Shown: positions 2,238 through 61,031, numbered from the stretch's first letter. The stretch: DNA of 64,000 nt from an uncultured Bacteroidota bacterium (GCA_902786595.1 CADADB010000002.1:158011-222010), one strand, 5' to 3'. The notes: generated by a model not told the origin, from the sequence alone. Numbers and translations are program-made.

Positions 2238-2267
2238 TGTAGAGACGTTTCAGGAAACGTCTCTACA
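2238..2267. repeat. GTAGAGACG palindromic element, T-subtype (H1)
   Basis: TGTAGAGACGTTTCAGGAAACGTCTCTACA, 3 nt after the deacetylase stop. Confidence 0.9.
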
Positions 2268-2285
2268 GGGGTTGTGTCTCAATCG

Positions 2286-2316
2286 TTTGTATGTATTCGA
2301 AATTTATGTACTTTTG
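2286..2316 (+). promoter_or_regulatory. Bacteroidota-type promoter (-33 TTTG, -7 TACTTTTG)
   Basis: TTTG at 2286-2289 and TACTTTTG at 2309-2316, 19 nt apart. The ATG lies 25 nt downstream. Confidence 0.65.
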
Positions 2317-2340
2317 CGCTCGAATGAAAAATCTTAAGAG

Positions 2341-3468
2341 ATGAATCCCATACAGATGGTCGATTTGAAAAGTCAGTATCTGCGCATCAAGCCGGAGGTG
2401 GATGCGGCCATTCAGCATGTGTTGGATTCAACGGCTTTCATCCAAGGTTCTTCTGTTCGCGAATTTGAAGAGCAGCTTGGTCAATACTCTGGTTCTAAGT
2501 ATGTTGTGAGCTGCGGTAATGGTACTGACGCGCTTTTGGTCGCTTTGATGGCCTTGGGTGTTGGACCCGGCGATGAGGTTATTACGGTTCCTTTTACTTT
2601 CGTGGCATCGGTGGAGGCCATTGCGCTTGTAGGAGCAAAACCGGTCTTCGTGGATGTTTGCGAGGATACCTTTACGATGGATCCCTCCTTGTTGGAATCG
2701 GCCATCACCCCGAAGACCAAAGCTATCCTTCCTGTGCATCTTTATGGTCAGTGTGCGGATATGGAGCCGATTTTGGATATTGCTAAGAGACACAATATCA
2801 AGGTGATAGAAGATGCTTGCCAGGCCGTTGGGACGGAATACTCCTTTGCTGACGGAACAGTGAAACAGGCAGGAACGATGGGCGATATCGGATGCCTTTC
2901 CTTCTTCCCTTCAAAAAATTTAGGATGTTATGGAGATGGCGGTGCTATGATGACACAAAATGTCGATTGGGCCGCGAAACTTCGCGCTATTTGCAAGCAT
3001 GGTTCAATAGAAAAATATCACCATGTGTGTCTGGGACTGAATTCGCGCTTGGATGCATTGCAGGCCGCTGTCTTGCAGGTGAAACTCCACCATTTGGATG
3101 AGTTTATCGCCAACCGCAAAGCTGCCGCCCGGTTTTATTTCGAGGCCTTAAAGAATGTTGATTGGATAGAACTTCCTGATAATAAAGAGAATACAGTGCA
3201 TACGTTTCATCAGTTCACCATTAAAGTGAAGGAAGGTAAGCGGGATGTGTTAAGACAGTATTTGACCGCGAAGGCGATTCCTTCAATGATCTATTACCCC
3301 ATTCCGGCGCATTTGCAGCCCGCCTATAAGTATTTGAATTACAAGGAAACGGATTTTCCCGTTTCGGAACGACTGTGCAACGAGGTTTTGTCTTTGCCAA
3401 TGCACACAGAACTCTCTGAGAATCAGTTACAATATATTTGTGAAACCATCGTTAATTGTCCGCTATGA
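2341..3468 (+). CDS. DegT/DnrJ/EryC1/StrS-family sugar aminotransferase
   Basis: 375 aa with the typical N-terminus [10 protein letters not shown] and GNGTDAL, plus SFFPSKNLG containing the PLP lysine. Confidence 0.9.
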
Positions 3469-4040
3469 AGGATTATTTTGCACACGAGACCGCCGTTCTA
3501 GACGAAGGATGTCAGATAGGAAAGAACACCAAGATCTGGCATTTCACGCATGTCATGTCGCAGGCAGTGGTTGGTGAAAATTGCGTCATCGGACAGAATG
3601 TGATGATAGCAAATCGTGTAACTTTAGGGAACAACGTGAAAGTGCAGAATAATGTCTCTGTTTATGAAGGTGTTACATGCGAGGATGACGTTTTTTTGGG
3701 TCCATCGATGGTGTTCACCAACGTCATTAATCCAAGGGCCTTCATTGAACGGAAGCTGGAGTTTAAACAGACCTTGGTGCGGCGAGGAGCAACAATAGGC
3801 GCGAACGCAACAATCTTGTGCGGTCACACCATTGGGCGTTATGCGATGGTCGGCGCTGGGGCGGTGGTCACTTCCGATGTGTCGGATTATGCGCTGGTGG
3901 TGGGGAATCCTGCCCAGCAAATTGGTTGGGTCAGTGAATACGGACACCGTCTTCTGTTCGATGAAACGGGCAGCGCCTCATGTCCTGAAAGTGGTCAAAA
4001 GTATCAACTATTTGATAATCAAGCCAAACGAATAAAATAA
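3456..4040 (+). CDS. Hexapeptide-repeat sugar N-acetyltransferase (WbpD-like)
   Basis: 194 aa of left-handed beta-helix hexapeptide repeats ([20 protein letters not shown] and others). Overlaps the upstream aminotransferase by 13 nt. Confidence 0.85.
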
Positions 4041-4041
4041 G

Positions 4042-6642
4042 ATGGTTAAAACGATTACTCGTTTTCTTTTGATTTTCATTACGTTATTGGCTGTTAAACC
4101 GATGGCTTTCGCTACGCATCAACGGGCCGGAGAAATCAGTTATACCTACATTTCCGGGTTGACATACGAATTCACTATCGTCACTTACACGTACACTCCA
4201 AGTCCAGCCGATCGTCCGCAGATTGAAGTGTTTTGGGGCGATGGCACCTCTTCGGAGATTGACCGTTTCATCAAGGTCAATATGGAGAACAACATCAGCA
4301 AGAACGTGTATGTCACGCAGCACACTTTTCCGGCTGCGGGCACTTTCCATGTCACTTTTGAGGACCCTAACCGAAATGCCGGCATCGTGAACATCCCGAG
4401 TTCGGTTGAGATTCCCTTTTTCATTGAAACCATCTTGATTATCAACCCTTTCATAGGAGGAAACTCTTCGCCGCAGTTGTTGAATCCGCCTTTGGACAAC
4501 GGTTGTACAAATGTCCCTTATTATCACAATCCAGGCGCATACGATGCGGAAGGGGACAGTCTTTCATACTCCTTGATTAACTGTCGGGGGTATGAAGGAG
4601 AGGATATTCCGGGTTACACATTGCCGCAGGCATCCAATTTCATAGCTATTGACCCAATTACTGGTGATTTGACATGGGATTCCCCCCTCATGGCAGGAGA
4701 ATACAATATCGCCATTCTGATTGAGGAGTGGCGCAACGGAGTGTTTGTCGGCAGCATGGTCAGGGACATGCAGATTACCATTGCGCCCTGCAATAATGAG
4801 CCGCCTGTGGTGGAAGTGTACGACACATGCGTGATAGCTGGTGCCAGAATAGATTTGCTCGTGCATGTCAAGGACGAAACCTCCACTCATGTTACGTTGA
4901 CGGCGACAGGAGAACCTTTCTTGCTCGGTGTGTCGCCTGCTCAGTTTGCCGAGATTACAGACAGTGTTCCATACGTCACCCATTTTGTTTGGCAAACGAC
5001 CTGTGAACATGTAAAGTCGGTTCCATATGAAGTACTATTCAAAGCTAAGGATAATGGTCCGCAAGTGGAGCTTGTGTCGTTTAAAACAATTCGCATTCGT
5101 GTGATCGCGCCAGCTCCGGAAAGCCTGCATGCCGTCCCGGAAGGAAATCTAATTCACTTGGATTGGTCTCCTGACTCCTGTTCCAATGCAGTCGGATATG
5201 ATGTGTATCGTCGAAACGGAAGTGATGATTTTGTTCCCGATTCCTGTCAGACTGGATTGCCGACGGAAGTTGGTTATTCTAAGATAGGGTCCACGTTTTC
5301 TTGGATTGATACGGTTTTTACCGATGACGGCACTACGAAACCGCTATATCATGGTAATGAATACTGCTATCGTGTGGTGGCGTTGTTCCCGGATGGATCG
5401 GAGAGTATAGTGTCGGATAAGGTGTGTGTCCATATTGCCAATGACGCGCCTATTATCATCAATTCTGATGTCGTAACCACAGATAAAGAGAGCGGGGAAG
5501 TGCTTGTGCGCTGGCTGTTTCCGCCAGAAATGGATTCCGTCGCCTTCCCGCCACCTTATGAGTATCAACTCTTCAGAATTTCTGAGAATCAAGAAAATGA
5601 ATTGATTTATTCGGTTAACGCGCCTGAAAATCCGAGTGATACACTTTTCTTTATGGATGGTAATCTAAATACGTCAGATTTTGATTATACTTATCGTGTT
5701 GAGATTCTCAATTCTGACACTGTTATCGAAAATTCGGATCCCGCTACATCAATTTTCCTTACAGTAGCTTCTGCCGATAAACGTTTGGCTCTTTCCTGGA
5801 CGGATACACAACCATGGAATAATATAAGCTATACGGTGTATAGATACAATAATCATACTGTCAGCTGGGATTCTCTTGCAATAGTCGCTGAGCCATATTA
5901 TACGGATTATAACCTTGAAAATGGGAAGACATACTGCTACTACATTAAGGCAGAGGGTTATTATTGGCTTCCGGACACTATTGGAGCACTTTATAACCGT
6001 TCGCAGCAGGAATGCGGTGTGCCGTACGACAATGAGCCCCCTGAGATGCCGGAAATCACTATCTCCACGGATTGCCAAAATGTTGAATTCAACTGGGTGT
6101 TCAGTTCCGATTCTGCTGCCACGGATGCAGTACATTACTATATTTACTACAAACCCACTTTGGAAGGGACATTTACTTGTATTGACTCTTTCGACAATGC
6201 TGAGATTTGTTTTCCAGCACCATGTAGCTATTCAATATATGCAAGCGGATCCGAGGTGCTTGTCGGTTGTTACGCCATGCAGGTAGCTGATAGCAACCGC
6301 AATGCCACTGAATTGACAGATTCCGTGTGTATTGACGTGTTTGATTGTCTGGATTACCAACTGCCGAATGTGTTCACTCCGAATGGTGACGGCATCAACG
6401 ACATTTTCACGCCGTTTATGCCCTATTCCGGGATTGTCAAGATCGAGATGGAGATTTACAACCGCTGGGGCAAGCGGGTTTTCCGCACGACTGACCCTGA
6501 CATTCTATGGGACGGCAGCGATGAAACCACCAAGCAACCCTCCTCCGACGGGGTTTATTACTACGGTTGCAAGTTGTTCGTCAACACGCTTTCGGGTGAG
6601 GTAACCTATTTGTTGAACGGGTCCATCACGTTAATCCGATAG
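4042..6642 (+). CDS. Large secreted protein with T9SS type-B (gliding-motility-associated) C-terminal domain
   Basis: Signal peptide followed by THQRAGEISY. The C-terminus reads LPNVFTPNGDGINDIF...WDG...GVYYY. Confidence 0.85.
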   Translation: MVKTITRFLLIFITLLAVKPMAFATHQRAGEISYTYISGLTYEFTIVTYTYTPSPADRPQIEVFWGDGTSSEIDRFIKVNMENNISKNVYVTQHTFPAAGTFHVTFEDPNRNAGIVNIPSSVEIPFFIETILIINPFIGGNSSPQLLNPPLDNGCTNVPYYHNPGAYDAEGDSLSYSLINCRGYEGEDIPGYTLPQASNFIAIDPITGDLTWDSPLMAGEYNIAILIEEWRNGVFVGSMVRDMQITIAPCNNEPPVVEVYDTCVIAGARIDLLVHVKDETSTHVTLTATGEPFLLGVSPAQFAEITDSVPYVTHFVWQTTCEHVKSVPYEVLFKAKDNGPQVELVSFKTIRIRVIAPAPESLHAVPEGNLIHLDWSPDSCSNAVGYDVYRRNGSDDFVPDSCQTGLPTEVGYSKIGSTFSWIDTVFTDDGTTKPLYHGNEYCYRVVALFPDGSESIVSDKVCVHIANDAPIIINSDVVTTDKESGEVLVRWLFPPEMDSVAFPPPYEYQLFRISENQENELIYSVNAPENPSDTLFFMDGNLNTSDFDYTYRVEILNSDTVIENSDPATSIFLTVASADKRLALSWTDTQPWNNISYTVYRYNNHTVSWDSLAIVAEPYYTDYNLENGKTYCYYIKAEGYYWLPDTIGALYNRSQQECGVPYDNEPPEMPEITISTDCQNVEFNWVFSSDSAATDAVHYYIYYKPTLEGTFTCIDSFDNAEICFPAPCSYSIYASGSEVLVGCYAMQVADSNRNATELTDSVCIDVFDCLDYQLPNVFTPNGDGINDIFTPFMPYSGIVKIEMEIYNRWGKRVFRTTDPDILWDGSDETTKQPSSDGVYYYGCKLFVNTLSGEVTYLLNGSITLIR

Positions 6643-6676
6643 TTTTTTCAGTGTATAATGATGATAAAGGATAATT

Positions 6677-6728
6677 GGCTGCCAACAGTCAACAGCCAAT
6701 GGCCAACAGCGAATAGCTAAAAGCTAAT
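6677..6728. repeat. Degenerate period-7 tandem array (CCAACAG/CCAATGG/GCTAAAA)
   Basis: ggctgccaacagtcaacagccaatggccaacagcgaatagctaaaagctaat. Confidence 0.8.
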
Positions 6729-6748
6729 TTCCCAATTCACATTTTTTG

Positions 6749-6756
6749 TATTTTTG
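6749..6756 (+). promoter_or_regulatory. -7 box TATTTTTG
   Basis: Matches TAnnTTTG, 65 nt upstream of the ATG at 6821. Confidence 0.5.
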
Positions 6757-6820
6757 CCGTTGGTTTAAAAGAATGGAATTACCAAACTAAAAAATATATT
6801 TATCAATAAATCAAAAAGAT

Positions 6821-8086: not shown

Positions 8087-8088
8087 AA

Positions 8089-9018: not shown

Positions 9019-9096
9019 AATGTGACTCTAACTATGACTTAGGCAAGAGTTTCAACTTCTTGCATTTAACTATTACTAATACTGATAAACCAAACA

Positions 9097-10745: not shown

Positions 10746-10754
10746 TGAATGGTG

Positions 10755-10790
10755 AGCCAACAGCCAACAGCTAATAGCCAATAGCCAAAA
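10755..10790. repeat. Period-7 array (AGCCAAC/AGCTAAT)
   Basis: agccaacagccaacagctaatagccaatagccaaaa, between convergent genes. Confidence 0.8.
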
Positions 10791-10791
10791 A

Positions 10792-11247: not shown

Positions 11248-11265
11248 GTATTAACTTTAAGACGG

Positions 11266-11273
11266 CAAAAATA
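11266..11273 (-). promoter_or_regulatory. -7 box TATTTTTG (minus strand)
   Basis: CAAAAATA on the plus strand, 18 nt upstream of the gtrA-like ATG. Confidence 0.5.
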
Positions 11274-11309
11274 AAAAATAATACCATACGGCGGATATAG
11301 AAAAAAGAG

Positions 11310-12125: not shown

Positions 12126-12135
12126 AAAAACAATG

Positions 12136-13430: not shown

Positions 13431-13476
13431 TTTTTAGATGTTTAATTTGGCGGCAAAAGTACATAAATTACCATTG

Positions 13477-13502
13477 TCGAGACGCAAAATTTTGCGTCTC
13501 GA
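13477..13502. repeat. Palindromic element, A-subtype with variant outer arm (H2)
   Basis: TCGAGACGCAAAATTTTGCGTCTCGA, a perfect 26-nt palindrome. Confidence 0.85.
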
Positions 13503-13523
13503 TGGAAATTCCGCTTTTTTTTT

Positions 13524-13554: not shown

Positions 13555-16500
13555 ATGAAAAAGACATTTACTTTCCTAACCATAATGCTACTGTTTGCGG
13601 CGGTTTCGGCGCAGACGGTGAGTGTGACGTTTACGGGGCGCGATATCAATGACTTGTATGTGCCGCTGCAACGGGTGGTTGTCAGTAACCTTACCAAAGG
13701 CTGGCAGGATACGTTGACTTGGCCCAATGATACGGTACTGACGATGACGGACGAGACCGGTGTCGGGGATGTAGAGACGTTTCCTGAAACATCTCTGCGG
13801 TTGTCGCAAAACACCCCCAACCCATTTGACGGCACCACGTTTGCGAACCTGCAGGTGGCAGAACTGGGAGACGTGGTAGTAGAGATCACCGATATCACCG
13901 GACGCATTGTAGGGGTGAATCATTATTCTCCCCTACAGCCAGGCATCCACGGAATCCGTATCACCCTCACTTCGGCAGGCATCTATTTCCTGACAGCGAG
14001 GCAAAACGGGATGACCTCTTCGGTGAAGATGGTGAATCGAACTAACGGTGGCAATAACTCCATTGCCATCAACCCTTCAGTTCTACAACTCAAAAGCAGT
14101 CACAGAGATGGTACAGACAATCCTTTTGAGGCAGGTGACCAAATGGAATATGTGGGCTTTGCCACCCTTGATGGCATGGAGGTCGAAAGCGAGCATATCG
14201 TACAGGTGCAGGAAGTCTCAGAGCTGATTACACTTTCTTTTTCTTCCTCAATGGAAGTCACGGATGCTCAACCCTGCCCTGCCACGCCAACCGTGACGGA
14301 TCACGAGGGCAATGTCTATCAGACGGTTATGATTGGCAATCAGTGTTGGATGCGGGAAAATATGCGTTGTGTGACCTCTCCGAGTACGGGTACCTACCTT
14401 GTGGATACAACCTATAATAGCACCTACACAGGCAAGATGGCAAAAAGATATAGGCATTATGATTCTATAACCGTGGACAGCAGTTTTGGTTTGTTGTACA
14501 ATTGGAATGCCATGATGGACACGTTCAACATAGCATATGGGGAGACCAGTGTGGACGACAGTGCCGACCATGCTTTTTCTGTGAATTACAACGGTTACAG
14601 ACGTGGCATTTGTCCGGCAGGTTGGCATCTCCCTACGGAAGACGAGTGGTGGCAGTTACTGTCTTATGTGATGTCACAACCGGATTACTGGTGTGACAGC
14701 TATTTTGATGATCACATTGCCAAGGCGCTTGCTTCCACAACCTCATGGAGTTATTTCTCTGATGAATGTTCACCAGGACACAACCTGAGCACAAACAATG
14801 CTACGGGGTTCAGTGCAATGCCTGCGGGTACTTTTACGAACAACACTTTCCCTACAGTGTTCCCCACATTTTGCTCTGCCTATTTCTGGACGGCCACACA
14901 ACATTCCAAAAGGAGTGCAAAGTCGCATTTCTTTCCATTCTGTAGTTCGACTGTTGATTGGGTATACAGCAACAAGTGTGATTGTTATTCAGTACGTTGC
15001 ATCCGAGGTGACGACACTTTTTCTGTCATAACGCCGCCCACGGTCACCACCGATTCTGTGATGGTGACACATACCTTGATAACCACGGTTACTTGTGGCG
15101 GTGATGTGGTATCGGATGGCGGTGCGCCGATTCTCACGCGGGGTGTATGCTGGAGTACCTCACCGAACCCTACGGTTGAGGATCCACATACCTTCAATGG
15201 CGATAGCCTTGGTTCGTTCACAAGCAACCTCATAGCTCTTCAGGCCAATACCACCTACTATGTGCGAGCATACGCCACCAATGAAGAAGGGATAGCATAC
15301 GGAAATGAGGTGGTGTTTTCCATGCTACCTACCGATTCCGTTCCCATAGCTGCACCTTGTCCCGGCATTCCTACAGTGACAGATATAGAAGGCAATGTGT
15401 ACAACACGGTTCAGATTGGCGCCCAGTGCTGGATGCGGGAAAATATGAGGGTGACTTATTTTTCGAATGGGTCGGCTGTTTCTCCTAACGGCTATTTTGA
15501 TTACAGTAGTTCAAATATTCCGTTTGTGGAACGCGGTTATTTATACAATTGGAATACGGCCATGCATGGAGCCTCTGCCACCAATGCCAATCCTTCCTGC
15601 GTGCAAGGCGTCTGTCCTATCGGTTGGCACGTGCCGAGTATTGCGGAGTGGACACAGCTCAGGAATTATGTGAGCAGCCAGAATCTGTTCGTTTGTGGAG
15701 ATTACTCGTGGTCTGTTGCCAAGGCATTATCTTCTACGACCGGATGGAATTATTTTTCAGAACTCTGTACTGTTGGCAACAGCCAAAGTACGAATAATGC
15801 TACGGGGTTCAGTGCTGTTCCTGCCGGTTGGTGGAAAGCAGCGTTTGGGCATTTTGACGATCAGGGGATGCATGCCTTTTTTTGCTCTACTACGAAATAT
15901 TATGGTAGTGTATTGAGTTGTCAACTATTTAACTACAGAAATGATGTGTTTTTTTATGATGGCTGCGATGTAGCCGATGGCCTCTCTGTTCGTTGCCTCC
16001 GCGATTCGCTCGGAGGAAGCGGCCATACGGTCTTCCTTCCCACGGTCACTACCGATTCGGTAAGCAATATAACGGATACGTCTGCCACTTGTGGCGGTGT
16101 GGTCACAACGGACGGCGGTGACACGATTATAGCTCGAGGGGTGTGTTGGGGAACATCATCGAACCCGACCATAGCGGGAGCTCATACTTCTGACAGTACG
16201 GGTTTGGGGACGTTCACGAGCAGCATTACAGGGCTCAACGCCGGTACCACGTACTATGTCCGGGCATACGTTACAAATAGTATAGGCACTTCCTATGGAA
16301 TGACGATGGCGTTCACCACAGCGCCTCTTACCCCGAATAACCAGCCTTGTCCCGATGCCCCTGTGGTGTTTGATTTTGAAGGTAATTCCTACAATACCAT
16401 ACAAATTGGTAACCAATGTTGGATGCGGGAAAACTTACGTTCCACGTACTATTCGGATGGTGAACCTATCCCTGCCGGGAACAGCAATATGAGCAGTACC

Positions 16501-17007
16501 AATCCTTACTATTATGACAATGGGATTTCAACACCATTGGAGGATCGAGGCTATCTGTATAACTGGCCTGCTGTGATGTACGGTGCATTATCAACGGAAG
16601 CTAACCCGTCCGGGGTGCAGGGAATCTGTCCCGACGGGTGGCACTTGCCAAGCAATGCAGAGTGGACACAGTTGATCAACTACTTAGGTACAGTCTCCGA
16701 TTATTGTTGTGGAGGCAATAGCAATTATATCGCTAAGGCAATGGCCTCACAGAGCGGTTGGCAGTCTACCTTTGATTACTGTACCCCTGGCAACAACCAA
16801 CTCGTGAACAATCTTTCAGGTTTTAGCGCTGTTCCTGTAAGTAATTACCTTGGAACACCAGGCTTTAACGCCGTCTTCTGGAGTTTTTCAGCAGGATCAA
16901 CCAGCTACTATGCCAAGGATTTTCAAATATACTGTTCTGCATCGAATGTGATTCAGGGTTCGTGTCCTACAGATTGGGGACTGTCTGTCCGCTGCCTCCG
17001 CGACTAA
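13555..17007 (+). CDS. Secreted multidomain protein with an N-terminal T9SS-CTD-like module and three FISUMP (Fibrobacter succinogenes major paralogous) domains
   Basis: Signal peptide MKKTFTFLTIMLLFAAVSAQ at the ATG 13555; the tracked ORF begins at 13438. Three repeats of CP..PTV.D.EGN.Y.T..IG.QCWM.EN...GYLYNW..A...CP.GWH.PS..EW..L...ATGFSA.PAG...SVRC.RD. Two Ig-like spacer domains. Confidence 0.85.
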   Translation: MKKTFTFLTIMLLFAAVSAQTVSVTFTGRDINDLYVPLQRVVVSNLTKGWQDTLTWPNDTVLTMTDETGVGDVETFPETSLRLSQNTPNPFDGTTFANLQVAELGDVVVEITDITGRIVGVNHYSPLQPGIHGIRITLTSAGIYFLTARQNGMTSSVKMVNRTNGGNNSIAINPSVLQLKSSHRDGTDNPFEAGDQMEYVGFATLDGMEVESEHIVQVQEVSELITLSFSSSMEVTDAQPCPATPTVTDHEGNVYQTVMIGNQCWMRENMRCVTSPSTGTYLVDTTYNSTYTGKMAKRYRHYDSITVDSSFGLLYNWNAMMDTFNIAYGETSVDDSADHAFSVNYNGYRRGICPAGWHLPTEDEWWQLLSYVMSQPDYWCDSYFDDHIAKALASTTSWSYFSDECSPGHNLSTNNATGFSAMPAGTFTNNTFPTVFPTFCSAYFWTATQHSKRSAKSHFFPFCSSTVDWVYSNKCDCYSVRCIRGDDTFSVITPPTVTTDSVMVTHTLITTVTCGGDVVSDGGAPILTRGVCWSTSPNPTVEDPHTFNGDSLGSFTSNLIALQANTTYYVRAYATNEEGIAYGNEVVFSMLPTDSVPIAAPCPGIPTVTDIEGNVYNTVQIGAQCWMRENMRVTYFSNGSAVSPNGYFDYSSSNIPFVERGYLYNWNTAMHGASATNANPSCVQGVCPIGWHVPSIAEWTQLRNYVSSQNLFVCGDYSWSVAKALSSTTGWNYFSELCTVGNSQSTNNATGFSAVPAGWWKAAFGHFDDQGMHAFFCSTTKYYGSVLSCQLFNYRNDVFFYDGCDVADGLSVRCLRDSLGGSGHTVFLPTVTTDSVSNITDTSATCGGVVTTDGGDTIIARGVCWGTSSNPTIAGAHTSDSTGLGTFTSSITGLNAGTTYYVRAYVTNSIGTSYGMTMAFTTAPLTPNNQPCPDAPVVFDFEGNSYNTIQIGNQCWMRENLRSTYYSDGEPIPAGNSNMSSTNPYYYDNGISTPLEDRGYLYNWPAVMYGALSTEANPSGVQGICPDGWHLPSNAEWTQLINYLGTVSDYCCGGNSNYIAKAMASQSGWQSTFDYCTPGNNQLVNNLSGFSAVPVSNYLGTPGFNAVFWSFSAGSTSYYAKDFQIYCSASNVIQGSCPTDWGLSVRCLRD
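13771..13798. repeat. Decayed GTAGAGACG element inside a CDS (H3)
   Basis: GTAGAGACGTTTCCTGAAACATCTCTGC, read in frame as VETFPETSL. Confidence 0.8.
13909..13936. repeat. GTAGGGG-type palindrome inside a CDS
   Basis: GTAGGGGTGAATCATTATTCTCCCCTAC, 12 of 14 positions paired. Read in frame as VGVNHYSPL. Confidence 0.8.
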
Positions 17008-26353: not shown

Positions 26354-26383
26354 TGTAGAGACGTTTCCTGAAACGTCTCTACA
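26354..26383. repeat. GTAGAGACG palindromic element, T-subtype (H4)
   Basis: TGTAGAGACGTTTCCTGAAACGTCTCTACA, between the sigma-gene stop and the parE start. Confidence 0.9.
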
Positions 26384-26488: not shown

Positions 26489-27637
26489 TCACTGCTCACC
26501 GATAACCTGATACACCGTGTCCGACACGATGGTGGTGTCGCGGATCACGACGGTCCGGCGGACGGGCACCTTTTGGGTGATGATGACGGGGTCGGGATTC
26601 GTTGTTTCTTCCGTTTTCGCTAATGCGGCGGGTGGTGTCCCGACAACGCTGGCGGGTGACGTTTCGGCGTCGGTCCGTAGGGGCGAATAATTATTCGCCC
26701 CTACAACGGAATTTGTTCCTACAACGGATTTCGTCCCTACAACAGAATCTGTCGCCACAACGCGTTCCGTCAATGTATTCGTGTTAGGAGATGCAACCGT
26801 ATCAGGAGACATTGCGCGCACCGTCTCTACCATCGGGGACGGATTATTGGCCGGGTTTGGGGCGACGGGGTGGTGACGGCCCGCCTGCCAACCGACGGCG
26901 CCGCCCGTGATGCCCGCAGCCGTGACGAGGAGGAGGGTGGCCTTGTGCGCCGCGATAGCGGTGACGAATTTGCCCGGGGAGGTGGCCGCCGTTTGGACGA
27001 TTCCGGCGGCGGAATCCATTCGCAATCCCGACAATTTGGAACGGTACAACCGGTCCAACCGGCGGGAATCGGCGTTGGTTCGTTTCAGGATAAAAAGCAG
27101 GGGTATCATAAGCAATCCTTTCCTCTTGTTCTCTTTTTGTTTGTATTTGTCTGTGAGCATTTGGCCCAGACGCACGCGGGCCCGGTGGTGCAACTGCTTG
27201 GAGTAGGCCACCGAGATGTCGAGCAGTCCCGCGATGCGCCGGTGCGAGTATCCTTCGATGGCGTAGAGGTTGAAGACCGTCCGTTGCTGTTCCGGCAGCT
27301 GCTGGACGGTTTCCAACAGCTCCTTCTCTGTGAAGTCGGCGGTCCAAATCGGTTCGGTGTCTTCGTCTGGGCGTTCGGCGGCGGGTTCCGACTCCAAGGC
27401 GATGAAATCGGGCTTTTGTCGCAGGTAGTCGATGCAGTGGTTCACGGCGATGCGGGTCAGCCAGGCATCGAAGCGGCCGAAGGCGCGGTAGGCCTTGAAG
27501 GTTTCCATTGCCTTCAGGAACACGTCCTGCGCCAGATCCTGCGCCACCGTCCAGTCGTTGACATAGCGGTAGCAGATCCCGACAATCCTGCCGTGCCCCC
27601 TCCGGTACTGCTTCTCCCAAAATTTCGCCTTGTCCAT
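26489..27637 (-). CDS. ECF-type sigma-70 factor fused to a transmembrane segment and a low-complexity extracytoplasmic tail
   Basis: Probable start MDKAKFW at 27637. Region 2: DLAQDVFLKAMETF...DAWLTRIAVNHCIDYLRQ. Region 4: LPEQQRTVFNLYAIEGYSHRRIAGLLDISVAYSKQLHHRAR. About 200 further residues follow with one hydrophobic helix (ATLLLVTAAGITGGAVGW). Confidence 0.8.
   Translation of the reverse strand: MDKAKFWEKQYRRGHGRIVGICYRYVNDWTVAQDLAQDVFLKAMETFKAYRAFGRFDAWLTRIAVNHCIDYLRQKPDFIALESEPAAERPDEDTEPIWTADFTEKELLETVQQLPEQQRTVFNLYAIEGYSHRRIAGLLDISVAYSKQLHHRARVRLGQMLTDKYKQKENKRKGLLMIPLLFILKRTNADSRRLDRLYRSKLSGLRMDSAAGIVQTAATSPGKFVTAIAAHKATLLLVTAAGITGGAVGWQAGRHHPVAPNPANNPSPMVETVRAMSPDTVASPNTNTLTERVVATDSVVGTKSVVGTNSVVGANNYSPLRTDAETSPASVVGTPPAALAKTEETTNPDPVIITQKVPVRRTVVIRDTTIVSDTVYQVIGEQ
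26677..26704. repeat. GTAGGGG-type perfect palindrome inside the sigma-tail CDS
   Basis: GTAGGGGCGAATAATTATTCGCCCCTAC, 14 of 14 paired. Encodes VGANNYSPL. Confidence 0.9.
26701..26772. repeat. Four tandem 18-bp units inside the sigma-tail CDS
   Basis: ctacaacggaatttgttc / ctacaacggatttcgtcc / ctacaacagaatctgtcg / ccacaacgcgttccgtca. Encodes a (T/D)xSVVG hexapeptide repeat. Confidence 0.85.
26803..26830. repeat. Decayed GTAGAGACG element inside the sigma-tail CDS
   Basis: caGGAGACattgcgcgcacCGTCTCTAC. The right arm is intact and the left arm is decayed. Encodes VETVRAMSP. Confidence 0.6.
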
Positions 27638-35459: not shown

Positions 35460-35489
35460 TGTAGAGACGCGCCATGGCACGTCTCTACA
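35460..35489. repeat. GTAGAGACG palindromic element, C-subtype (H5)
   Basis: TGTAGAGACGCGCCATGGCACGTCTCTACA. Confidence 0.9.
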
Positions 35490-36956: not shown

Positions 36957-36984
36957 GTAGAGACGCGCCATGGCACGTCTCTAC
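36957..36984. repeat. GTAGAGACG palindromic element, C-subtype (H6)
   Basis: GTAGAGACGCGCCATGGCACGTCTCTAC. The core is identical to H5. Confidence 0.9.
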
Positions 36985-48423: not shown

Positions 48424-48450
48424 GTAGAGACGCAAAAATTTTGCGTCTTA
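48424..48450. repeat. GTAGAGACG element, A-subtype with a decayed 3' arm (H7)
   Basis: GTAGAGACGCAAAAATTTTGCGTCTTA, 3 nt from the LRR-gene stop. Confidence 0.8.
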
Positions 48451-48453
48451 TGG

Positions 48454-49977
48454 TTAGCGTTTAACAATTTTCCTCCAGTATTCGTGTTTCCCCATGTCCG
48501 TCACGCGCAACATGTACACACCTGAGGGGAGAGATTTTATATTCAATATATGTGAATTGGGCGAGTTTTGGAAATATATCACCCGGCCTTGCAAATCGTA
48601 CAGCGTGATATTTACAATTTTCAAATCACCATCATTCTTCACATACAAGACATCATCAACGGGATTGGGATAAACCGTCAATGTTGCAGTTTTATGATCT
48701 TCCAGTCCGACACATTCCTCATAGATGAAATTACTGTAGCTGCTCCAACCAGGTGCAGACTGATACACGGATGTTTTTCCGCATGGTACTCGAACGTAAA
48801 TCGTATCTGTGTAGTAAAATGTTCCATTAGTCGAAAGGGCGGTGATGGTGGGTGGCATCTCACAGTAGATGTCCAATACTTTGAGCCCACTATCTGAAAC
48901 TGTCCAGAAAGCCTGTTTACCAATAAAGTTCACAGAAGCGGGAATGGAGATTTGCCTTAGCATAGGTGTTCCTGCAAAAGCAAAACGCTCAATTGTGGTC
49001 AGCAGTTGCGGTAAGACGACACTGCTCAAAGAGTGGCAATCGGAGAAGCATCCTTCGGGAATGGTGTCAATCTGAGGGGGAATGATTACTGATTGGATAT
49101 TAGTGAACTCAAAACTGTGTCTCCCAAGCCGAACTGTATTATTTGATAGAACAACTTTTTCCAAATGGTTGAAATAAGCGAAAGTGTAATCAGCCAATTC
49201 CAGGGGCTCTGTTCCTGGTTTAAACTCCACATAACGACATGCAATGTCCTTCAACGCGAAAGAATCTCCTAATGAGGAAAACGGATTGTTGTCACCCAAT
49301 GAAATTTTCCGCAGGGTACTAGGAAAAACCAGTGAATCAATCAAATCTGCTGAAAAAGCACCACATCTTATCTCTTGTAGTCCCTCATGGAAGGTGATTT
49401 TTGTCAACGGACAGTAATAAAAAACATCTGCTGGTAATAATGTCACTCCAGCAGGAATATCCACCTGTGACAATTTCGCCTGATAGAACGCATATCTTTC
49501 GATTTGTTCAACACCGGGCATACTGATATGACAAAGAGAAGACACCAGAAATGCACCTTCTCGTATTGTCTTTACCGAAGAGGGAAGTGACACCGATTTC
49601 AAATTGGCTTGCATATAGAAAGCCTCGTTGTCCACAGCCGTGACAACGTATTCTATATTGTTATAGTTGACGGAGGCAGGCACGGTAATAGCGGAATCAT
49701 AATCAAACACAGGATAGACAAACCCCGGCTGTCCCACTTGAGAGGAACTCTGTGGCCACGGCAGCTTGTGATAGACAGAGTCGTGGCAACGGGTCACAGC
49801 AACGGTGTAGGGTGCTATGGAGGATGTGATGCGGTAATATAGCGTGTCCCCGTCAGCATTGGCAGCCTTGAAGTCGTAATCAGGGTATGGGTTCTGGGCA
49901 CTTACGCTGCCGATGAACAGAGAGAACAAAAACGACATCAGAATTCCTACAACTCCGAAAATATTATTTTTCTTCAT
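48454..49977 (-). CDS. BspA-type leucine-rich-repeat protein with T9SS type-A C-terminal domain
   Basis: Signal peptide at Met14 (49977). Repeats of the form IP.SV..I...AF. CTD: VYPNPVDDVLYV...LPSGVYMLRV...KIVK. Confidence 0.85.
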   Translation of the reverse strand: MKKNNIFGVVGILMSFLFSLFIGSVSAQNPYPDYDFKAANADGDTLYYRITSSIAPYTVAVTRCHDSVYHKLPWPQSSSQVGQPGFVYPVFDYDSAITVPASVNYNNIEYVVTAVDNEAFYMQANLKSVSLPSSVKTIREGAFLVSSLCHISMPGVEQIERYAFYQAKLSQVDIPAGVTLLPADVFYYCPLTKITFHEGLQEIRCGAFSADLIDSLVFPSTLRKISLGDNNPFSSLGDSFALKDIACRYVEFKPGTEPLELADYTFAYFNHLEKVVLSNNTVRLGRHSFEFTNIQSVIIPPQIDTIPEGCFSDCHSLSSVVLPQLLTTIERFAFAGTPMLRQISIPASVNFIGKQAFWTVSDSGLKVLDIYCEMPPTITALSTNGTFYYTDTIYVRVPCGKTSVYQSAPGWSSYSNFIYEECVGLEDHKTATLTVYPNPVDDVLYVKNDGDLKIVNITLYDLQGRVIYFQNSPNSHILNIKSLPSGVYMLRVTDMGKHEYWRKIVKR

Positions 49978-50013
49978 AATTTTGATTTTAGGAATACGGA
50001 AAAAATAATTTGG

Positions 50014-50021
50014 CAAAAATA
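50014..50021 (-). promoter_or_regulatory. -7 box TATTTTTG (minus strand), LRR gene
   Basis: CAAAAATA on the plus strand, 36 nt upstream of 49977. Confidence 0.55.
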
Positions 50022-50045: not shown

Positions 50046-50073
50046 GTAGAGACGCAAAATTTTGCGTCTCTAC
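50046..50073. repeat. GTAGAGACG palindromic element, A-subtype (H8)
   Basis: GTAGAGACGCAAAATTTTGCGTCTCTAC, a perfect palindrome. Confidence 0.9.
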
Positions 50074-52227: not shown

Positions 52228-52238
52228 AAATTAGGGCG

Positions 52239-52246
52239 CAAAGATA
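52239..52246 (-). promoter_or_regulatory. -7 box TATCTTTG (minus strand), sufCD
   Basis: CAAAGATA on the plus strand, only 11 nt from the first ATG, which implies a very short leader. Confidence 0.5.
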
Positions 52247-52260
52247 CGATTTTTTAGAAT

Positions 52261-52288
52261 GTAGAGACGCACCATGGCACGTCTCTAC
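52261..52288. repeat. GTAGAGACG palindromic element, C-subtype (H9)
   Basis: GTAGAGACGCACCATGGCACGTCTCTAC. Its right arm supplies the TAG stop of the 1099-aa ORF. Confidence 0.9.
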
Positions 52289-55584: not shown

Positions 55585-55586
55585 GA

Positions 55587-55618
55587 AACCCTTAACCTTT
55601 AACCCTTAACCCTTAAAC
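55587..55618. repeat. Period-7 array (AACCCTT)
   Basis: aacccttaacctttaacccttaacccttaaac, filling the purA-stop to next-ATG gap. Confidence 0.9.
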
Positions 55619-56886: not shown

Positions 56887-56910
56887 ATTCTCGTTTTTTG
56901 AAAATCGGGG

Positions 56911-56918
56911 CAAAGATA
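56911..56918 (-). promoter_or_regulatory. -7 box TATCTTTG (minus strand), purA
   Basis: CAAAGATA on the plus strand. Confidence 0.6.
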
Positions 56919-56957
56919 CATAAATTACGAATATACACAGACAGATAAAATTGACGC

Positions 56958-56987
56958 TGTAGAGACGTTTCATGAAACGTCTCTACA
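56958..56987. repeat. GTAGAGACG palindromic element, T-subtype (H10)
   Basis: TGTAGAGACGTTTCATGAAACGTCTCTACA, a perfect 30-nt palindrome. Confidence 0.9.
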
Positions 56988-57026
56988 ATTTCAGAGGAAA
57001 GACACGATTTTTTGGAAAACGGAATG

Positions 57027-57554
57027 TTATCGGTCAAGATACAAATCAACCAACCCCTCCGGGGTGGAAACGTACAGGATTTTGTTTTCCCGGTCCACGT
57101 TTGTGACGAACTGTTGGGAGGCGGGGATGAGGATTTCCACGCCGTTGAAGTCGATCTGCATCAAAGGATTGTTCGTGAGCTCCATGAAGTCTTTGCAAAC
57201 GCCAATGTCTCCGGCTTTTTCATCGATTACCTTGAAGCCGATTACCTCGTGAAAATAGAAGCGGTTGCCAGTGAGTTTCGGCAGACTGCTGAGGGGCAGG
57301 TAGAGTTCCGTCTGCACAAACTCGCGCACATTGTCCATGTCCACATCCTGCAGTTTGATGATGAATTGGTTGTTTCCCCGGTATTGCAGGTTCTCAATGA
57401 TATAAGGTAACATTTCGCCATCCGTCTCGATAAAAACGGCTTCGAGATCAAGATAGCGATTACAGTCATCGACATCAAAAAAGGCACACAACTCGCCTTT
57501 CAGTCCGAAAGGTTTTGTTAGTGTGCCTAAATAGTAGAAGTTTTTGTCTGCCAT
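57027..57554 (-). CDS. rimM: 16S rRNA processing protein RimM
   Basis: 175 aa with YLGTLTKPFGLKGEL at the N-terminus and a PRC-barrel C-terminus. Downstream of rpsP. Confidence 0.9.
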   Translation of the reverse strand: MADKNFYYLGTLTKPFGLKGELCAFFDVDDCNRYLDLEAVFIETDGEMLPYIIENLQYRGNNQFIIKLQDVDMDNVREFVQTELYLPLSSLPKLTGNRFYFHEVIGFKVIDEKAGDIGVCKDFMELTNNPLMQIDFNGVEILIPASQQFVTNVDRENKILYVSTPEGLVDLYLDR

Positions 57555-57570
57555 AATCAGGCGGAAAAAA

Positions 57571-58158
57571 CTATTCAGCAGCCGGTTGTTCGGCTTCAGC
57601 GGCAGGTGCCTCTTCGGCAGCGGCAGCTTCTTCAGCGGCGGCCTCAGCGGCAGCGGCTTCAGCAGCTTCTTGTGCGGCCTTTGCCTGAGCAGCGGCGATT
57701 TCAGCGGCTTTGGCGGCCACTTTTGCGGAGATGGCTTCTTTCACTTTCGTCTCAGCGGCAAGACGTTCTTTCACGACTTTGCGCTTTGCCTCACGCTCTG
57801 CATTCTCGACATCCTTCAGCTTGGAGTTCTTCTCCTGCTTCCAGGCCTCGAATTTGCGTTGAGCTTCGTTCTCGCTGAAAGCGCCCTTAGCCACACCGCC
57901 TTTGAGGTGCTTCATCAAATAAACACCTTCACGTTTGAGAATCGCACGGGCAGTATCGGAAGGAGTGGCGCCCACTTCCAGCCAATACAAAGCTCTGTCA
58001 AAATTGATGTTCAATGTTGCAGGATTGGTCAGCGGGTTGTAGGTACCCAGATCCTCGATGAATCGTCCGTCACGTGGTGCTCGACCATCCGCAATTACAA
58101 GGTGGTAAAAAGGTTGGTTCTTCTTACCGCGTCTTTGTAATCTGATTCTTGTTGCCAT
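57571..58158 (-). CDS. rpsP: 30S ribosomal protein S16 with an Ala/Glu/Lys-rich C-terminal extension
   Basis: MATRIRLQRRGKKNQPFYHLVIAD core, followed by a ~100-aa low-complexity tail. Confidence 0.95.
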   Translation of the reverse strand: MATRIRLQRRGKKNQPFYHLVIADGRAPRDGRFIEDLGTYNPLTNPATLNINFDRALYWLEVGATPSDTARAILKREGVYLMKHLKGGVAKGAFSENEAQRKFEAWKQEKNSKLKDVENAEREAKRKVVKERLAAETKVKEAISAKVAAKAAEIAAAQAKAAQEAAEAAAAEAAAEEAAAAEEAPAAEAEQPAAE

Positions 58159-58194
58159 AATACGTTAATTTTTAAGGGTTAAAAAATTCGGCGG

Positions 58195-58202
58195 CAAAAA
58201 TA
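58195..58202 (-). promoter_or_regulatory. -7 box TATTTTTG (minus strand), rpsP
   Basis: CAAAAATA on the plus strand, 36 nt upstream of the ATG. Confidence 0.55.
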
Positions 58203-58307
58203 CACTTTTTTGGCATACGGACCATTGCAGGCGAAAAGTTTATTTTTCGCCTATAAAATGTTGGTTAAAAGCCAATAAACAGACCGCTTTCCATTACTTG
58301 AATGCCA

Positions 58308-59738
58308 CTACGGCAGTACCACTACCACCGCGTCTTTTGCTTTCTGGCGCACACCTTTTGGCAATGTTATGGTGTATTCGTCGCCTTTTTTGGAGATGGA
58401 GGCCTTCTCGGAGGAACCCAAAATGGTTGCTTTACCTGTTTTCACAGGTTTCTCAAGATTTTTGAAAGTATAGGTGGCGGGGGTGAGTTCGTTTTCGGGG
58501 AATAGCAGCAAAGCGTAGCGTTGTCCGTCTTTGCCCTGCGTGAAACGAACTTGTCCGTAGCAATAGGGGAGGCAAGGACGGGTGCTGTAAATTGCTTTTC
58601 CGTTGACGCTTAGCCATTTACCCATGTCTTGCAAGCGTTCCACGGCGGTTTGCGGGAGTGTGCCTTCTGGGGAGGGTCCCACATTCAACAGGAAGTTGCC
58701 GCCTTTGGCCACGATGTCAATCAGCAGGTGGATGAGCCGGTTGGTGGACTTGTAGTTGTCGGTGGCCACGTACGACCAGGAATCGCCCATCGACATGCAA
58801 GTTTCCCAGGGGTAGGGGAGCAGTGTGTCGGGAACCTCCTGTTCGGGGGTGCGGTAGTTCTCGTATTTGCCGTGTACACTGCGATCCACGATAATGAGGT
58901 CGGGGTTGTTGGCGCGCACATCTTCCGCCACCTGCGGCATGTCGATGTCCTGGATCCAGCCCTGGCATCCGAGCCAGTCGCGGACCTCCTCGTCAACGCT
59001 CCACGCGGGGCGTACCCAGCCGCCGTCGAGCCACAGGATGTCAATGTCGCCGTAGTTGTTGGCCAGCTCATGCAGCTGTTTGCGGGTGAAATCGCAGTAT
59101 TTCGCCCACCGTTCGGGATGTTTCTCGGGGTCGTAGTTCACGTTGCGGTCAGGGGTGGCCCATTCCGGCGCCCAGTAGTCGGGACAGTGCCAGTCGGGCT
59201 TCGAGAAATAAAGTCCTGTCCAAAGCCCTTGACTCCGGAAAGCTTTCACCAAGGCGCCGGTCACGTCGGCGTTAGGGTTTTTGGAGAATGGACAATCTTT
59301 TCCCGTGACGGAGTAGTCGGTCTCTTTAGTGTCATACATACAGAAGCCGTCGTGATGCTTGGTGGTGAACACGAAGTACTTCATGCCGCAATCTTTGGCC
59401 AGCTTCGCCCAAGATTCCGGGTCGAATTTTGTCGGATTGAAGGTTTTGTTAAGTGCCTGGTATTTGGCCTTATATTCTGTATAAGGAACGCCGTCGCGGC
59501 TGATCCACGGCTCATTGCAGATGGACCACGACTCCACCACGCCCCATTGTGCGTAAATACCCCAGTGCATCATCAGTCCGAACTTCAAGTCCTGCCACTG
59601 GTCGATGCGGTTCAGGATGACAGGGTCAGTTTCAAACTTCTGTTCGTCTTGTGCGTAAGATGTTGAAAATGAGATCGCTGCGAATGTCAATAATAAAAAA
59701 CGGAGGAGGTTGTTTTTTCTGAAAGCCATAAATATCAT
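58308..59738 (-). CDS. Alpha-L-fucosidase (GH29)
   Basis: Signal peptide. FGLMMHWGIYA and FTTKHHDGFCMYDT motifs. Confidence 0.9.
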   Translation of the reverse strand: MIFMAFRKNNLLRFLLLTFAAISFSTSYAQDEQKFETDPVILNRIDQWQDLKFGLMMHWGIYAQWGVVESWSICNEPWISRDGVPYTEYKAKYQALNKTFNPTKFDPESWAKLAKDCGMKYFVFTTKHHDGFCMYDTKETDYSVTGKDCPFSKNPNADVTGALVKAFRSQGLWTGLYFSKPDWHCPDYWAPEWATPDRNVNYDPEKHPERWAKYCDFTRKQLHELANNYGDIDILWLDGGWVRPAWSVDEEVRDWLGCQGWIQDIDMPQVAEDVRANNPDLIIVDRSVHGKYENYRTPEQEVPDTLLPYPWETCMSMGDSWSYVATDNYKSTNRLIHLLIDIVAKGGNFLLNVGPSPEGTLPQTAVERLQDMGKWLSVNGKAIYSTRPCLPYCYGQVRFTQGKDGQRYALLLFPENELTPATYTFKNLEKPVKTGKATILGSSEKASISKKGDEYTITLPKGVRQKAKDAVVVVLP

Positions 59739-59755
59739 TATTTAAATTGAAAGCG

Positions 59756-59763
59756 CAAAAGTA
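59756..59763 (-). promoter_or_regulatory. -7 box TACTTTTG (minus strand), fucosidase
   Basis: CAAAAGTA on the plus strand. Confidence 0.5.
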
Positions 59764-59921
59764 AACAAAATAACATTACATCGAAGTTTTGGGATTCAGC
59801 CCTTGAATCTTGCGAAATTGATGATTTAACCTTTACTATCAATAGTGAAAATAATCGTAAACAATTAGTTTCCAGTGAAATATTTTTCTGATTTAGGGCT
59901 TGGAACGATTGAAAAAAAGCG

Positions 59922-59929
59922 TACCTTTG
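59922..59929 (+). promoter_or_regulatory. -7 box TACCTTTG, recA
   Basis: 28 nt upstream of the ATG at 59958. Confidence 0.55.
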
Positions 59930-59957
59930 CCCCCTGAAATCATTAAACCTATCAAGA

Positions 59958-60980
59958 ATGGAAAAAGAAGAAATTAAAAACAATGTGAATGCTGAGAAAC
60001 TGAAAGTGCTCAATTCTACACTCGAGAAACTTGAAAAAACTTTCGGAAAAGGTTCTATTATGCGTATGGGCGAGACCCATATTGAAGAGATGGACGTCAT
60101 ATCTACCGGTTCTATTGGCCTGGACACGGCACTCGGTGTCGGCGGATTCCCGAAAGGCCGTATTGTTGAAATCTATGGCCCTGAATCCTCCGGTAAGACC
60201 ACATTGGCCATCCACGCCATCGCGGAGGCGCAAAAACAGGGCGGTATCGCCGCTTTCATCGATGCGGAACACGCCTTCGATCGCTTCTATGCCGAAAAAT
60301 TAGGCGTGAATACCGCTGAACTGCTAATTTCACAACCCGACAACGGTGAGCAGGCGCTCGAAATCGCCGACAACCTCATCCGCTCCGGCGCCATTGACAT
60401 CATCGTCATCGACTCCGTAGCCGCCCTTACCCCGAAAAGCGAAATCGAAGGCGACATGGGCGACTCCAAGGTCGGCCTTCAGGCGCGCCTGATGTCACAA
60501 GCACTGCGCAAACTGACGGCAACCATCAACAAGACAGGTTGTTGCTGCATCTTCATCAACCAATTGCGTGAGAAAATCGGCATCATGTTCGGCAACCCGG
60601 AGACCACCACGGGCGGTAATGCCTTGAAGTTCTACGCCTCTGTGCGCCTAGATATTCGCCGCCAGACCCAAATCAAGGACGGAGACAAGGCCATCGGTAA
60701 CCACGTGAAAGTCAAGGTGGTAAAGAACAAAGTCGCGCCTCCGTTCCGCACAGCGGAGTTTGACATCATGTTCGGCGAAGGCATCTCCAAGTCGGGCGAA
60801 ATTGTCGATCTCGGTGTCGAATACAATATTATAAAGAAGTCCGGCTCCTGGTTCTCCTACGGCGACTCCAAACTCGCCCAAGGTCGCGACAGCGTGAAAC
60901 AGCTGCTCAACGACAACCCCGAACTCTCCGATGAAATCGAGGCCAAAATCCGCGAAGCCATCAAAGAAGGAATGAAGTAG
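59958..60980 (+). CDS. recA: Recombinase A
   Basis: [11 protein letters not shown] Walker A and [10 protein letters not shown]. Confidence 0.99.
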
Positions 60981-61001
60981 TTGCTGTTAGTATTTTCCAA
61001 T

Positions 61002-61031
61002 TGTAGAGACGTTTCAGGAAACGTCTCTACA
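61002..61031. repeat. GTAGAGACG palindromic element, T-subtype (H11)
   Basis: TGTAGAGACGTTTCAGGAAACGTCTCTACA, identical to H1. Starts 21 nt after the recA stop. Confidence 0.9.

Follow-up and report, generated by a model that had tools for sequence, protein, structure and literature searches.

What are the short palindromes that recur through 64,000 nucleotides of the genome of an uncultured Bacteroidota bacterium (GCA_902786595.1 CADADB010000002.1:158011-222010; this whole stretch is referred to as the window)? A sequence-only reading of the window had described twelve copies in three subtypes and taken them for a repetitive extragenic palindromic (REP)-like element that might be moved by an enzyme encoded elsewhere. 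The analysis described here makes it very probable that they are double-foot, GTAG-tagged REPs belonging to the REP-associated tyrosine transposase (RAYT) system of TnpA_REP subclass 2.4. This subclass corresponds to RAYT group 4 of Bertels et al. 2017, as stated in Quentin et al. 2018 (BMC Genomics 19:475, PMC6006769). The window REPs add a clean but unremarkable case to a kind that has been described before, and they extend GTAG-type REPs to an uncultured Bacteroidales lineage.

The window was searched for the pattern GTAGAGACG-N(8-12)-CGTCTCTAC, and 100 dinucleotide-preserving shuffles of the window were used as the control. Eight exact palindromes of the form GTAGAGACG-N10-CGTCTCTAC were found, at 2239, 26355, 35461, 36957, 50046, 52261, 56959 and 61003. 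None was found in any of the 100 shuffles and none is expected by chance. Four decayed copies (13476, 13771, 26803 and 48424) were added by half-site and inverted-repeat searches. The twelve-copy family was thereby confirmed as eight perfect and four decayed members, its coordinates being right to within 1 nt, with the flanking T included for some copies. The three subtypes are also as claimed. The inner stem is TTTC-NN-GAAA in the T subtype, C(G/A)CCATGGCA in the C subtype and CAAAA(A)TTTTG in the A subtype. A sister palindrome, GTAGGGGCG...CGCCCCTAC, occurs twice in the window, at 26677 (GTAGGGGCG-AATAATTATT-CGCCCCTAC) and as a variant at 13909, and is part of the same phenomenon. There are 14 copies in 64 kb, 10 of them extragenic. 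Outside the window, 1 kb upstream, there is another copy between co-directional genes and near the upstream stop.

Each unit is 28-30 nt long, within the 20-40 bp that characterise REPs, and comprises a stem of 12-13 bp and a loop of approximately 4 nt or less. Most copies are flanked by T...A, giving a 30-nt palindrome, and T+28+A amounts to 10 codons. The GTAG foot is present in 8/8 perfect copies and in both sister copies; it pairs with a 3' CTAC and so reads the same on both strands. The predicted RNA folds of the hairpins had minimum free energies of -17 to -22 kcal/mol, compared with -3.8 +/- 2.9 kcal/mol for random 30-mers from the window. BLAST comparison between the copies showed similarity ending at approximately 30-35 nt, with unrelated flanks. 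All window copies are singletons, and the nearest neighbours are at least 110 nt apart and in different contexts. A scan of the window at Rfam gathering thresholds returned two tRNAs only and no described RNA family over the hairpins. The arms also contain the BsmBI/Esp3I recognition sequence GAGACG/CGTCTC, which we take to be a coincidence.

The same arms were then sought in one genome per species, 596 Gb in all. At least 119 loci with the same 9-bp arms were found, where approximately 43 matches to 18 fixed bases would be expected by chance. Among the matches listed, a tally by record title gave approximately 46 cyanobacterial, 42 Bacteroidota and 11 Chloroflexota loci. The remaining listed loci comprised Rhodothermales, Ignavibacteria, Geobacter-like and Acidobacteria records and single matches in other phyla, some of which may come from mis-binned contigs of metagenome-assembled genomes (MAGs). 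Half-site spacing varied among loci from N8 to N12. In IMG/VR the same palindrome was present in at least 120 viral or proviral contigs (L132-L251), often several times per contig, and these included the C-subtype variant of the window.

When the genome loci, the viral loci and the window were pooled, 91 distinct inner decamers were obtained. Inner pairs 1-4 were Watson-Crick in 86% of cases, compared with a mean of 35% and a maximum of 44% in 1000 shuffles, and each of these pairs used three or four Watson-Crick pair types. The self-complementarity of the inner parts, on which the search placed no constraint, shows that the cross-species matches are not chance. Since the inner decamers vary yet pair, sequence is what fixes the 9-bp foot, whereas pairing alone fixes the upper end of the stem. 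A conserved outer arm around a varying but self-complementary inner stem had already been noticed in the window copies, and the pooled decamers bear this out.

All open reading frames (ORFs) of the 119 listed loci were clustered to find palindrome-linked gene families. One protein family was present in 6/119 loci, its gene always adjoining or overlapping the palindrome, and a RAYT profile search of the same 119 loci returned no more than those six. The linked proteins carry the motifs MPNH[LF]H, WQ..[YF].DH.IRN and YIxNNP (HUH/Y1) and match NCBIfam NF047646 REP_Tyr_transpos (REP-associated tyrosine transposase) at E values of 1e-13 to 1e-15. They match Pfam Y1_Tnp weakly. The sole PDB match was E. 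coli TnpA_REP (4ER8, E = 6e-6), in two short stretches spanning the HuH and WQ...YIxNP regions. One linked protein has at least 7973 homologues of 174-282 aa, with the Joint Genome Institute (JGI) name "REP element-mobilizing transposase RayT". In the best 120 of these, NHxH was found in 118/120, YIxxNP in 119/120 and WQxx[YF]x[DE][HR] in 118/120, with NHLH in many.

The palindrome is also found within the enzyme genes. Peptides of the form [RGCS]RDAMHCVST or VETQCIASLQ were present in 68 of the same best 120 homologues, at approximately residues 100-130, and the RDAMHCVST-type and VETQCIASLQ peptides are two open-frame translations of GTAGAGACGCAATGCATTGCGTCTCTAC. An in-frame REP inside the RAYT gene was confirmed in the DNA of L023, L083, L114 and L126. 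Matching palindromes, not always perfect, lie inside or flank the RAYT gene in L025, L055, L106, L126 and L127. At the D. orientale and JGI RAYT loci the palindromes were internal or decayed, and no perfect double-foot one immediately flanked the gene. The REPtron is therefore a common arrangement, not a universal one.

Several results weigh against the assignment. The linked proteins score under the curated cut-offs of both Pfam Y1_Tnp and NF047646 (an equivalog model). The RAYT gene of L125 contains an internal imperfect palindrome only, and that of L127 has decayed or variant palindromes in and beside it. No RAYT was detected in a profile search of the 120 palindrome-bearing viral contigs (1.06 Mb). 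To our knowledge, mobilisation of REPs by a RAYT in vivo has not been shown for any subclass-2.4 member. A RAYT gene was found neither in the window nor in the 80.7 kb of contig around it. A trans-acting enzyme encoded outside the window was what the sequence-only reading had proposed; this fits with that result and with the RAYT genes of other species that the same palindrome flanks or occupies, and a RAYT is presumably present in this organism's genome. The placement in subclass 2.4 is by described features and not by a shared consensus sequence. A full-text literature search for the arm sequences returned unrelated primer matches only, and the GTAGAGACG arms were not in the supplements of Di Nocera 2013 (PMC3733652).

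By analogy, we infer that the window copies are mobilised by a RAYT, and the following sequence of events is proposed. A single RAYT gene elsewhere in the genome would supply an enzyme with affinity for the hairpin formed by single-stranded DNA. Sequence would guide its reading of the GTAG(AGACG) foot, and shape alone that of the upper stem. The enzyme would then cut and rejoin single-stranded DNA, by which REP units would be copied or exchanged in trans. Trans copying by a foot-reading RAYT would be expected to leave an invariant 9-bp foot, with the inner 5 bp and the loop free but paired. Copies would persist where harm is small, namely past stops, in co-directional or convergent gaps and, in frame, in tolerant protein loops. 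Once transcribed, the stable hairpin may shield mRNA 3' ends or pause transcription, as a secondary role.

Cross-species positions were determined from crude ORF calls on all listed loci, with the expectation calculated from intergenic length. The 90 extragenic copies comprised 44 in tandem, 35 in convergent and 11 in divergent regions, compared with 47, 16 and 27 expected (chi-square approximately 33). Convergent regions are thus approximately 2-fold enriched and divergent regions approximately 2.5-fold depleted. Genic copies made up 29 of the 119 placed, approximately 88% of that DNA being genic. For copies between tandem genes, the upstream stop was a median of 24 nt away and the downstream start a median of 72 nt, and across species several copies were located -4 to +7 nt from the upstream stop. 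The 3'-side bias across species is real, as for other REPs, and agrees with Di Nocera et al. 2013 (PMC3733652).

Contexts in the window (Table 1) were assigned from the gene calls of the collection, our own ORF map and Pfam; the middle of the window was covered by our own ORFs and Pfam. The extragenic copies in or beside the window comprised eight in tandem, one convergent (36957) and two divergent (13476 and 35461). The tandem copies, near the upstream stop, are those at 2239, 26355, 48424, 50046, 52261, 56959 and 61003 and the copy upstream of the window. The in-frame coding copies (13771, 13909, 26677 and 26803) are in two genes. The earlier statement that most copies lie at gene 3' ends is upheld as a bias across species but needs qualifying for the window, where four copies are in-frame coding sequence and two lie between divergent genes.

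Table 1. REP copies in the window, with positions counted from its first nucleotide and the gene strand in brackets.
Element	Position	Context
T-subtype REP, perfect (TGTAGAGACGTTTCAGGAAACGTCTCTACA)	2238..2267	4 nt after polysaccharide deacetylase stop (+), 74 nt before next + gene
A-subtype REP, altered feet (GTCGAGACGCAAAATTTTGCGTCTCGAT)	13476..13503	Divergent region between cvpA-like (-) and Fib_succ_major (+)
T-subtype REP, decayed (right arm)	13771..13798	In frame in Fib_succ_major/T9SS-like gene; GTA GAG ACG... = VETFPETSL
Sister-family REP (TGTAGGGGTGAATCATTATTCTCCCCTACA)	13908..13937	In frame in Fib_succ_major/T9SS-like gene; VGVNHYSPLQ
T-subtype REP, perfect	26354..26383	Between two - genes, 106 nt after ECF sigma ORF stop and 39 nt before gyrB/parE-like start
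Sister-family REP, perfect (GTAGGGGCGAATAATTATTCGCCCCTAC)	26677..26704	In frame in C-terminal extension of ECF sigma ORF; VGANNYSPL
Decayed REP, left arm (CAGGAGACATTGCGCGCACCGTCTCTAC)	26803..26830	In frame in ECF sigma ORF; VETVRAMSP
C-subtype REP, inner CGCCATGGCA	35460..35489	Divergent intergenic; one C.A mismatch = G.T on minus strand
C-subtype REP	36957..36984	Convergent genes, 69 nt after + stop and 43 nt after - stop
A-subtype REP, right foot decayed	48424..48451	2 nt downstream of LRR/T9SS stop (-), 38 nt upstream of rlmH
A-subtype REP, perfect	50046..50073	16 nt downstream of sufD stop (-; TAA)
C-subtype variant, inner CACCATGGCA	52261..52288	TAG of GTAG foot = stop of 1099-aa TldD-like gene (-); 33 nt upstream of sufC
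T-subtype REP, perfect 30-nt palindrome	56958..56987	40 nt after rimM stop (-), 72 nt before purA start (-)
T-subtype REP, perfect	61002..61031	22 nt after recA stop (+), 23 nt before next + gene

Individual copies show some further features. In the copy at 13476 the feet are GTCG...CGAT and the GTAG tag is lost, with pairing kept over nearly the full length apart from one terminal G.T. An A-to-C change in one foot is accompanied by a compensating change in the partner foot (CTAC to CGAT). The ECF (extracytoplasmic function) sigma ORF at 26489-27154 (-) has a predicted C-terminal extension of approximately 220 aa that contains two REPs and three tandem half-feet. The half-feet are CCTACAAC units, translated as SVVGTKSVVGTNSVVGANNYSPL, and extend beyond the REP at 26677 to approximately 26745 (26697-26745). 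The extension may be translated, or may arise artefactually where REPs leave this frame open. The TAG of a GTAG foot serves as a stop codon in the TldD-like gene (window 52285-52288) and in sufD of two related genomes (L129:~4474 and L130:11371); REPs therefore abut or redefine gene ends. The window belongs to a 309-kb contig in a metagenome assembly (ENA ERZ27280385) and derives from a Bacteroidales MAG. Protein domains encoded in the window include CHU_C, Por_Secre_tail and Fib_succ_major. Positions 1-1460 contain tRNA-Thr(GGT), tuf (EF-Tu) and tRNA-Trp(CCA) in an ordinary conserved order.

Turnover of the copies was followed in three relatives chosen via SufD, at 95%, 84% and 71% identity, the one at 71% being L131; the other two are L129 and L130. 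Those of the closest SufD homologues that carry a name come from Bacteroidales MAGs. Downstream of sufD, a REP stands 16 nt beyond the TAA in the window, L130 has a REP whose GTAG gives the TAG stop, and L129 has a left arm only at that place. No REP was found in 21 kb of L131, in which a classical intrinsic terminator (stem plus T-run) follows sufD at L131:11369-11445. REPs are therefore not the only 3'-end hairpins of the lineage. The window also contains a leucine-rich repeat (LRR)/type IX secretion system (T9SS) gene of the Por_Secre_tail kind (48454-50016) that is bracketed by the A-subtype REPs at 48424 and 50046. This gene was not present between sufD and rlmH in L129 or L130. It could be a sign that REPs mark gene insertion points. 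The sufD-rlmH spacer of these two relatives (L129:4477-4681, L130:11375-11517; 140-205 nt) contains short degenerate GCTGTTGATTAGC-like repeats and their inverted counterparts.

Replacement of one subtype by another was seen within a coding sequence. The gene at 13558-17007 encodes a secreted Fib_succ_major/T9SS-like protein, and its in-frame REPs lie in loops of the N-terminal Por_Secre_tail-like domain (13558-14100). In homologues (P0241-P0269) the same loop positions, two or three in number, are occupied by REPs of the T, A, C or GGGCG type. The loop peptides are VETFPETSL and VETFQETSL for the T subtype, VE[TP]QNFASL for the A subtype, VETCHGASL and VETRHGTSLQ for the C subtype and VGANNYSPLQ for the GTAGGGGCG sister family; VETMCTSSL was also found and carries no subtype assignment. 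At orthologous codons the DNA is GTAGAGACG-TTTCCTGAAA-CATCTCTGC in the window and GTGGAGCCG-CAAAATTTTG-CCTCTCTAC in L252, whose protein is 77% identical to that of the window; the flanks are homologous while the entire inner decamer differs. An orthologue in L085 (50% identity) has a perfect T-type palindrome at the position equivalent to 13771. Point mutation cannot interconvert self-complementary decamers, and resident REPs were therefore replaced as units. That leaves three routes, namely conversion, renewed insertion into the same site and exchange carried out by an enzyme. In-frame REPs were seen in frames 1 and 3 only, because frame 2 contains TAG. It is conceivable but doubtful that in-frame REPs act as 10-codon cassettes (VET-xxxx-SL[QR], VGANNYSPLQ) that can be exchanged within the surface loops of T9SS/Fib_succ_major-type secreted proteins.

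A different account would hold that the hairpins are terminators or mRNA 3'-end stabilisers kept for their RNA function, their repetition being convergent or due to duplication and not linked to mobility or to an enzyme. The hairpins are very stable, 9/11 extragenic copies lie within approximately 110 nt of a gene 3' end, and the convergent excess and divergent deficit across species point the same way. The lack of a U-tract, correctly noted in the sequence-only reading, argues otherwise. A lax terminator scan of 46-62 kb flagged 56959 (minus strand) as the sole REP, with a terminator-like count not above shuffles, and no T-run was found in the sequence flanking the other copies, which therefore lack the hairpin plus U-tract of an intrinsic terminator. 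Ordinary terminators exist in the lineage, as the stem and U-tract after sufD in L131 demonstrate. Terminator function does not predict a 9-bp foot that is the same in different phyla while the inner stem is free. Copies are also found in frame inside genes, in divergent promoter regions and embedded in RAYT genes. The C-subtype mismatches, which become G.U on the minus strand, had been read as a sign of selection on RNA structure. Hairpins of single-stranded DNA, which RAYTs are known to use as substrate, tolerate G.T pairs equally well. Across species G.U fell in the sense transcript eight times and A.C four times, which is not significant. The C-subtype variant TGCCATGGCG/CGCCATGGCA is also found in the related genome L130 and in viral contigs; the mismatch was therefore inherited with the subtype and does not represent three independent events. 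The strand asymmetry was dropped as evidence for selection on RNA. Taken as the whole explanation, RNA function is unlikely. It is compatible with REPs as a secondary role, and it is only the analogy with E. coli REPs that makes it plausible for the hairpins to terminate transcription bidirectionally or to stabilise mRNA.

Two other accounts were considered, and both are much less probable again. The palindromes might be operator or architectural dyads for a dimeric protein that binds double-stranded DNA, the hairpin being irrelevant. The outer 9 bp are perfectly symmetric, and E. coli REPs bind IHF, gyrase and Pol I according to background given in PMC6006769. A binder of the outer arms alone would not require 91 self-complementary inner forms, loops of N8-N12 shift the half-site spacing, and the copies are mostly past stops and inside ORFs and not at promoters, so we regard this account as very improbable. 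We give equally little credence to remnants of a conventional transposable element, whether terminal inverted repeats of a MITE (a miniature transposable element with inverted repeats) or insertion sequence (IS), or IS200/IS605 subterminal hairpins. The elements are dispersed and multicopy, and the linked enzyme is related to IS200 transposases, as its weak Pfam Y1_Tnp match indicates. However, this enzyme has the RAYT-specific WQ and YIxNNP motifs, and its PDB match is TnpA_REP and not IS200 TnpA. The copies share nothing beyond approximately 30-35 nt, no repeated bases that would signal a target-site duplication are present at their ends, and they are singletons and not pairs around an internal segment. 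A MITE in particular, which would be roughly 100-400 bp long, was ruled out, as there is no similarity past approximately 35 nt between copies and no flanking direct repeat.

The main use of identifying the palindromes as double-foot REPs is correct annotation: in Bacteroidales MAGs the repeats should carry a REP label or be masked. Left unlabelled, REPs give rise to spuriously lengthened ORFs and to "hypothetical proteins" containing VET...SLQ or RD...VST peptides. They also shift called stops, as the GTAG foot supplies a TAG, and assemblies can break at them. The 91 inner-stem variants on an invariant foot are a data set for what a subclass-2.4 RAYT probably reads by sequence and what by shape. 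Something new could come only from the replacement of subtypes at fixed sites inside genes. Should this replacement be recurrent and driven by a RAYT or by conversion, exposed proteins would draw templated peptide variation from REPs, and REPs already in place would also be favoured as sites of landing or exchange.

The closest described elements are the double-foot REPs of subclass 2.4, and it is their features that bear out the earlier description of a REP-like element, together with the RAYT linkage in other species. Quentin et al. 2018 (PMC6006769) characterise the subclass by NH[IFV]H, WQ and YIxNNP motifs, by a HuH-Y spacer that varies and by a patchy distribution over Cyanobacteria, Bacteroidetes and various other phyla. 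Its REPs are "long" or "double foot", with a 5' GT[AG]G and a 3' C[TC]AC, and its unique trait is the presence of REPs in frame inside tnpA_REP genes, between HuH and Y. The feet around a long stem, the phylum range, the NHxH/WQ/YIxNNP motifs and the in-frame REPs were all reproduced here. The linked RAYTs found here are often NHLH, in which L is outside the published NH[IFV]H, and the window and the 80.7 kb around it differ in containing no RAYT gene. Subtype-changing in-frame REPs in genes other than RAYT genes, as seen here, are not mentioned in the available part of that paper.

The GTAG REP superfamily (Di Nocera, De Gregorio, Rocco 2013, BMC Genomics 14:522, PMC3733652; Nunvar et al. 2010, PMC2817692) shares with the window copies a 6-13-bp stem and a short loop. 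As described in PMC3733652, it has a GTAG tag, subfamilies with complementary stem changes, G.T pairs and sites downstream of ORFs, some copies being intragenic. Subfamily stem changes, G.T pairs, ORF-downstream sites in unidirectional or convergent settings and association with RAYTs (REPtrons) are likewise common to both. The tag in that superfamily is unpaired and at one end (PMC3733652), whereas here GTAG is paired with CTAC and is at both ends. Repeats there form head-to-head or tail-to-tail (HH/TT) dimers or clusters, whereas the window copies are singletons. PMC3733652 reported GTAG repeats in Proteobacteria, Cyanobacteria, Chloroflexi and Planctomycetes-Verrucomicrobia-Chlamydiae (PVC), and, in Bacteroidetes, CGTC repeats only; here GTAG is abundant in Bacteroidota.

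With E. coli REPs, bacterial interspersed mosaic elements (BIMEs) and TnpA_REP (4ER8; Messing et al. 2012, PMC3479197), the common feature is an HUH/Y1 enzyme that recognises GTAG as a guide where a hairpin of single-stranded DNA has its foot. E. coli REPs also lie at the 3' ends of transcription units, and 4ER8 is the structure matched by the palindrome-linked RAYT. They differ in being asymmetric, with a bulged stem and an unpaired GTAG, and often form BIME dimers; the enzymes resemble each other little in sequence. REPINs, the hairpin-forming REP doublets of Pseudomonas, are likewise symmetric hairpin units tied to a single-copy RAYT. Bertels and Rainey reportedly described them in 2011 as two REPs plus a spacer, roughly 70-110 nt in total. 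The element found here is a single 28-30-nt palindrome and not two inverted REPs with a spacer. A double-foot REP could itself be a collapsed inverted REP dimer, as proposed in Quentin et al. (PMC6006769).

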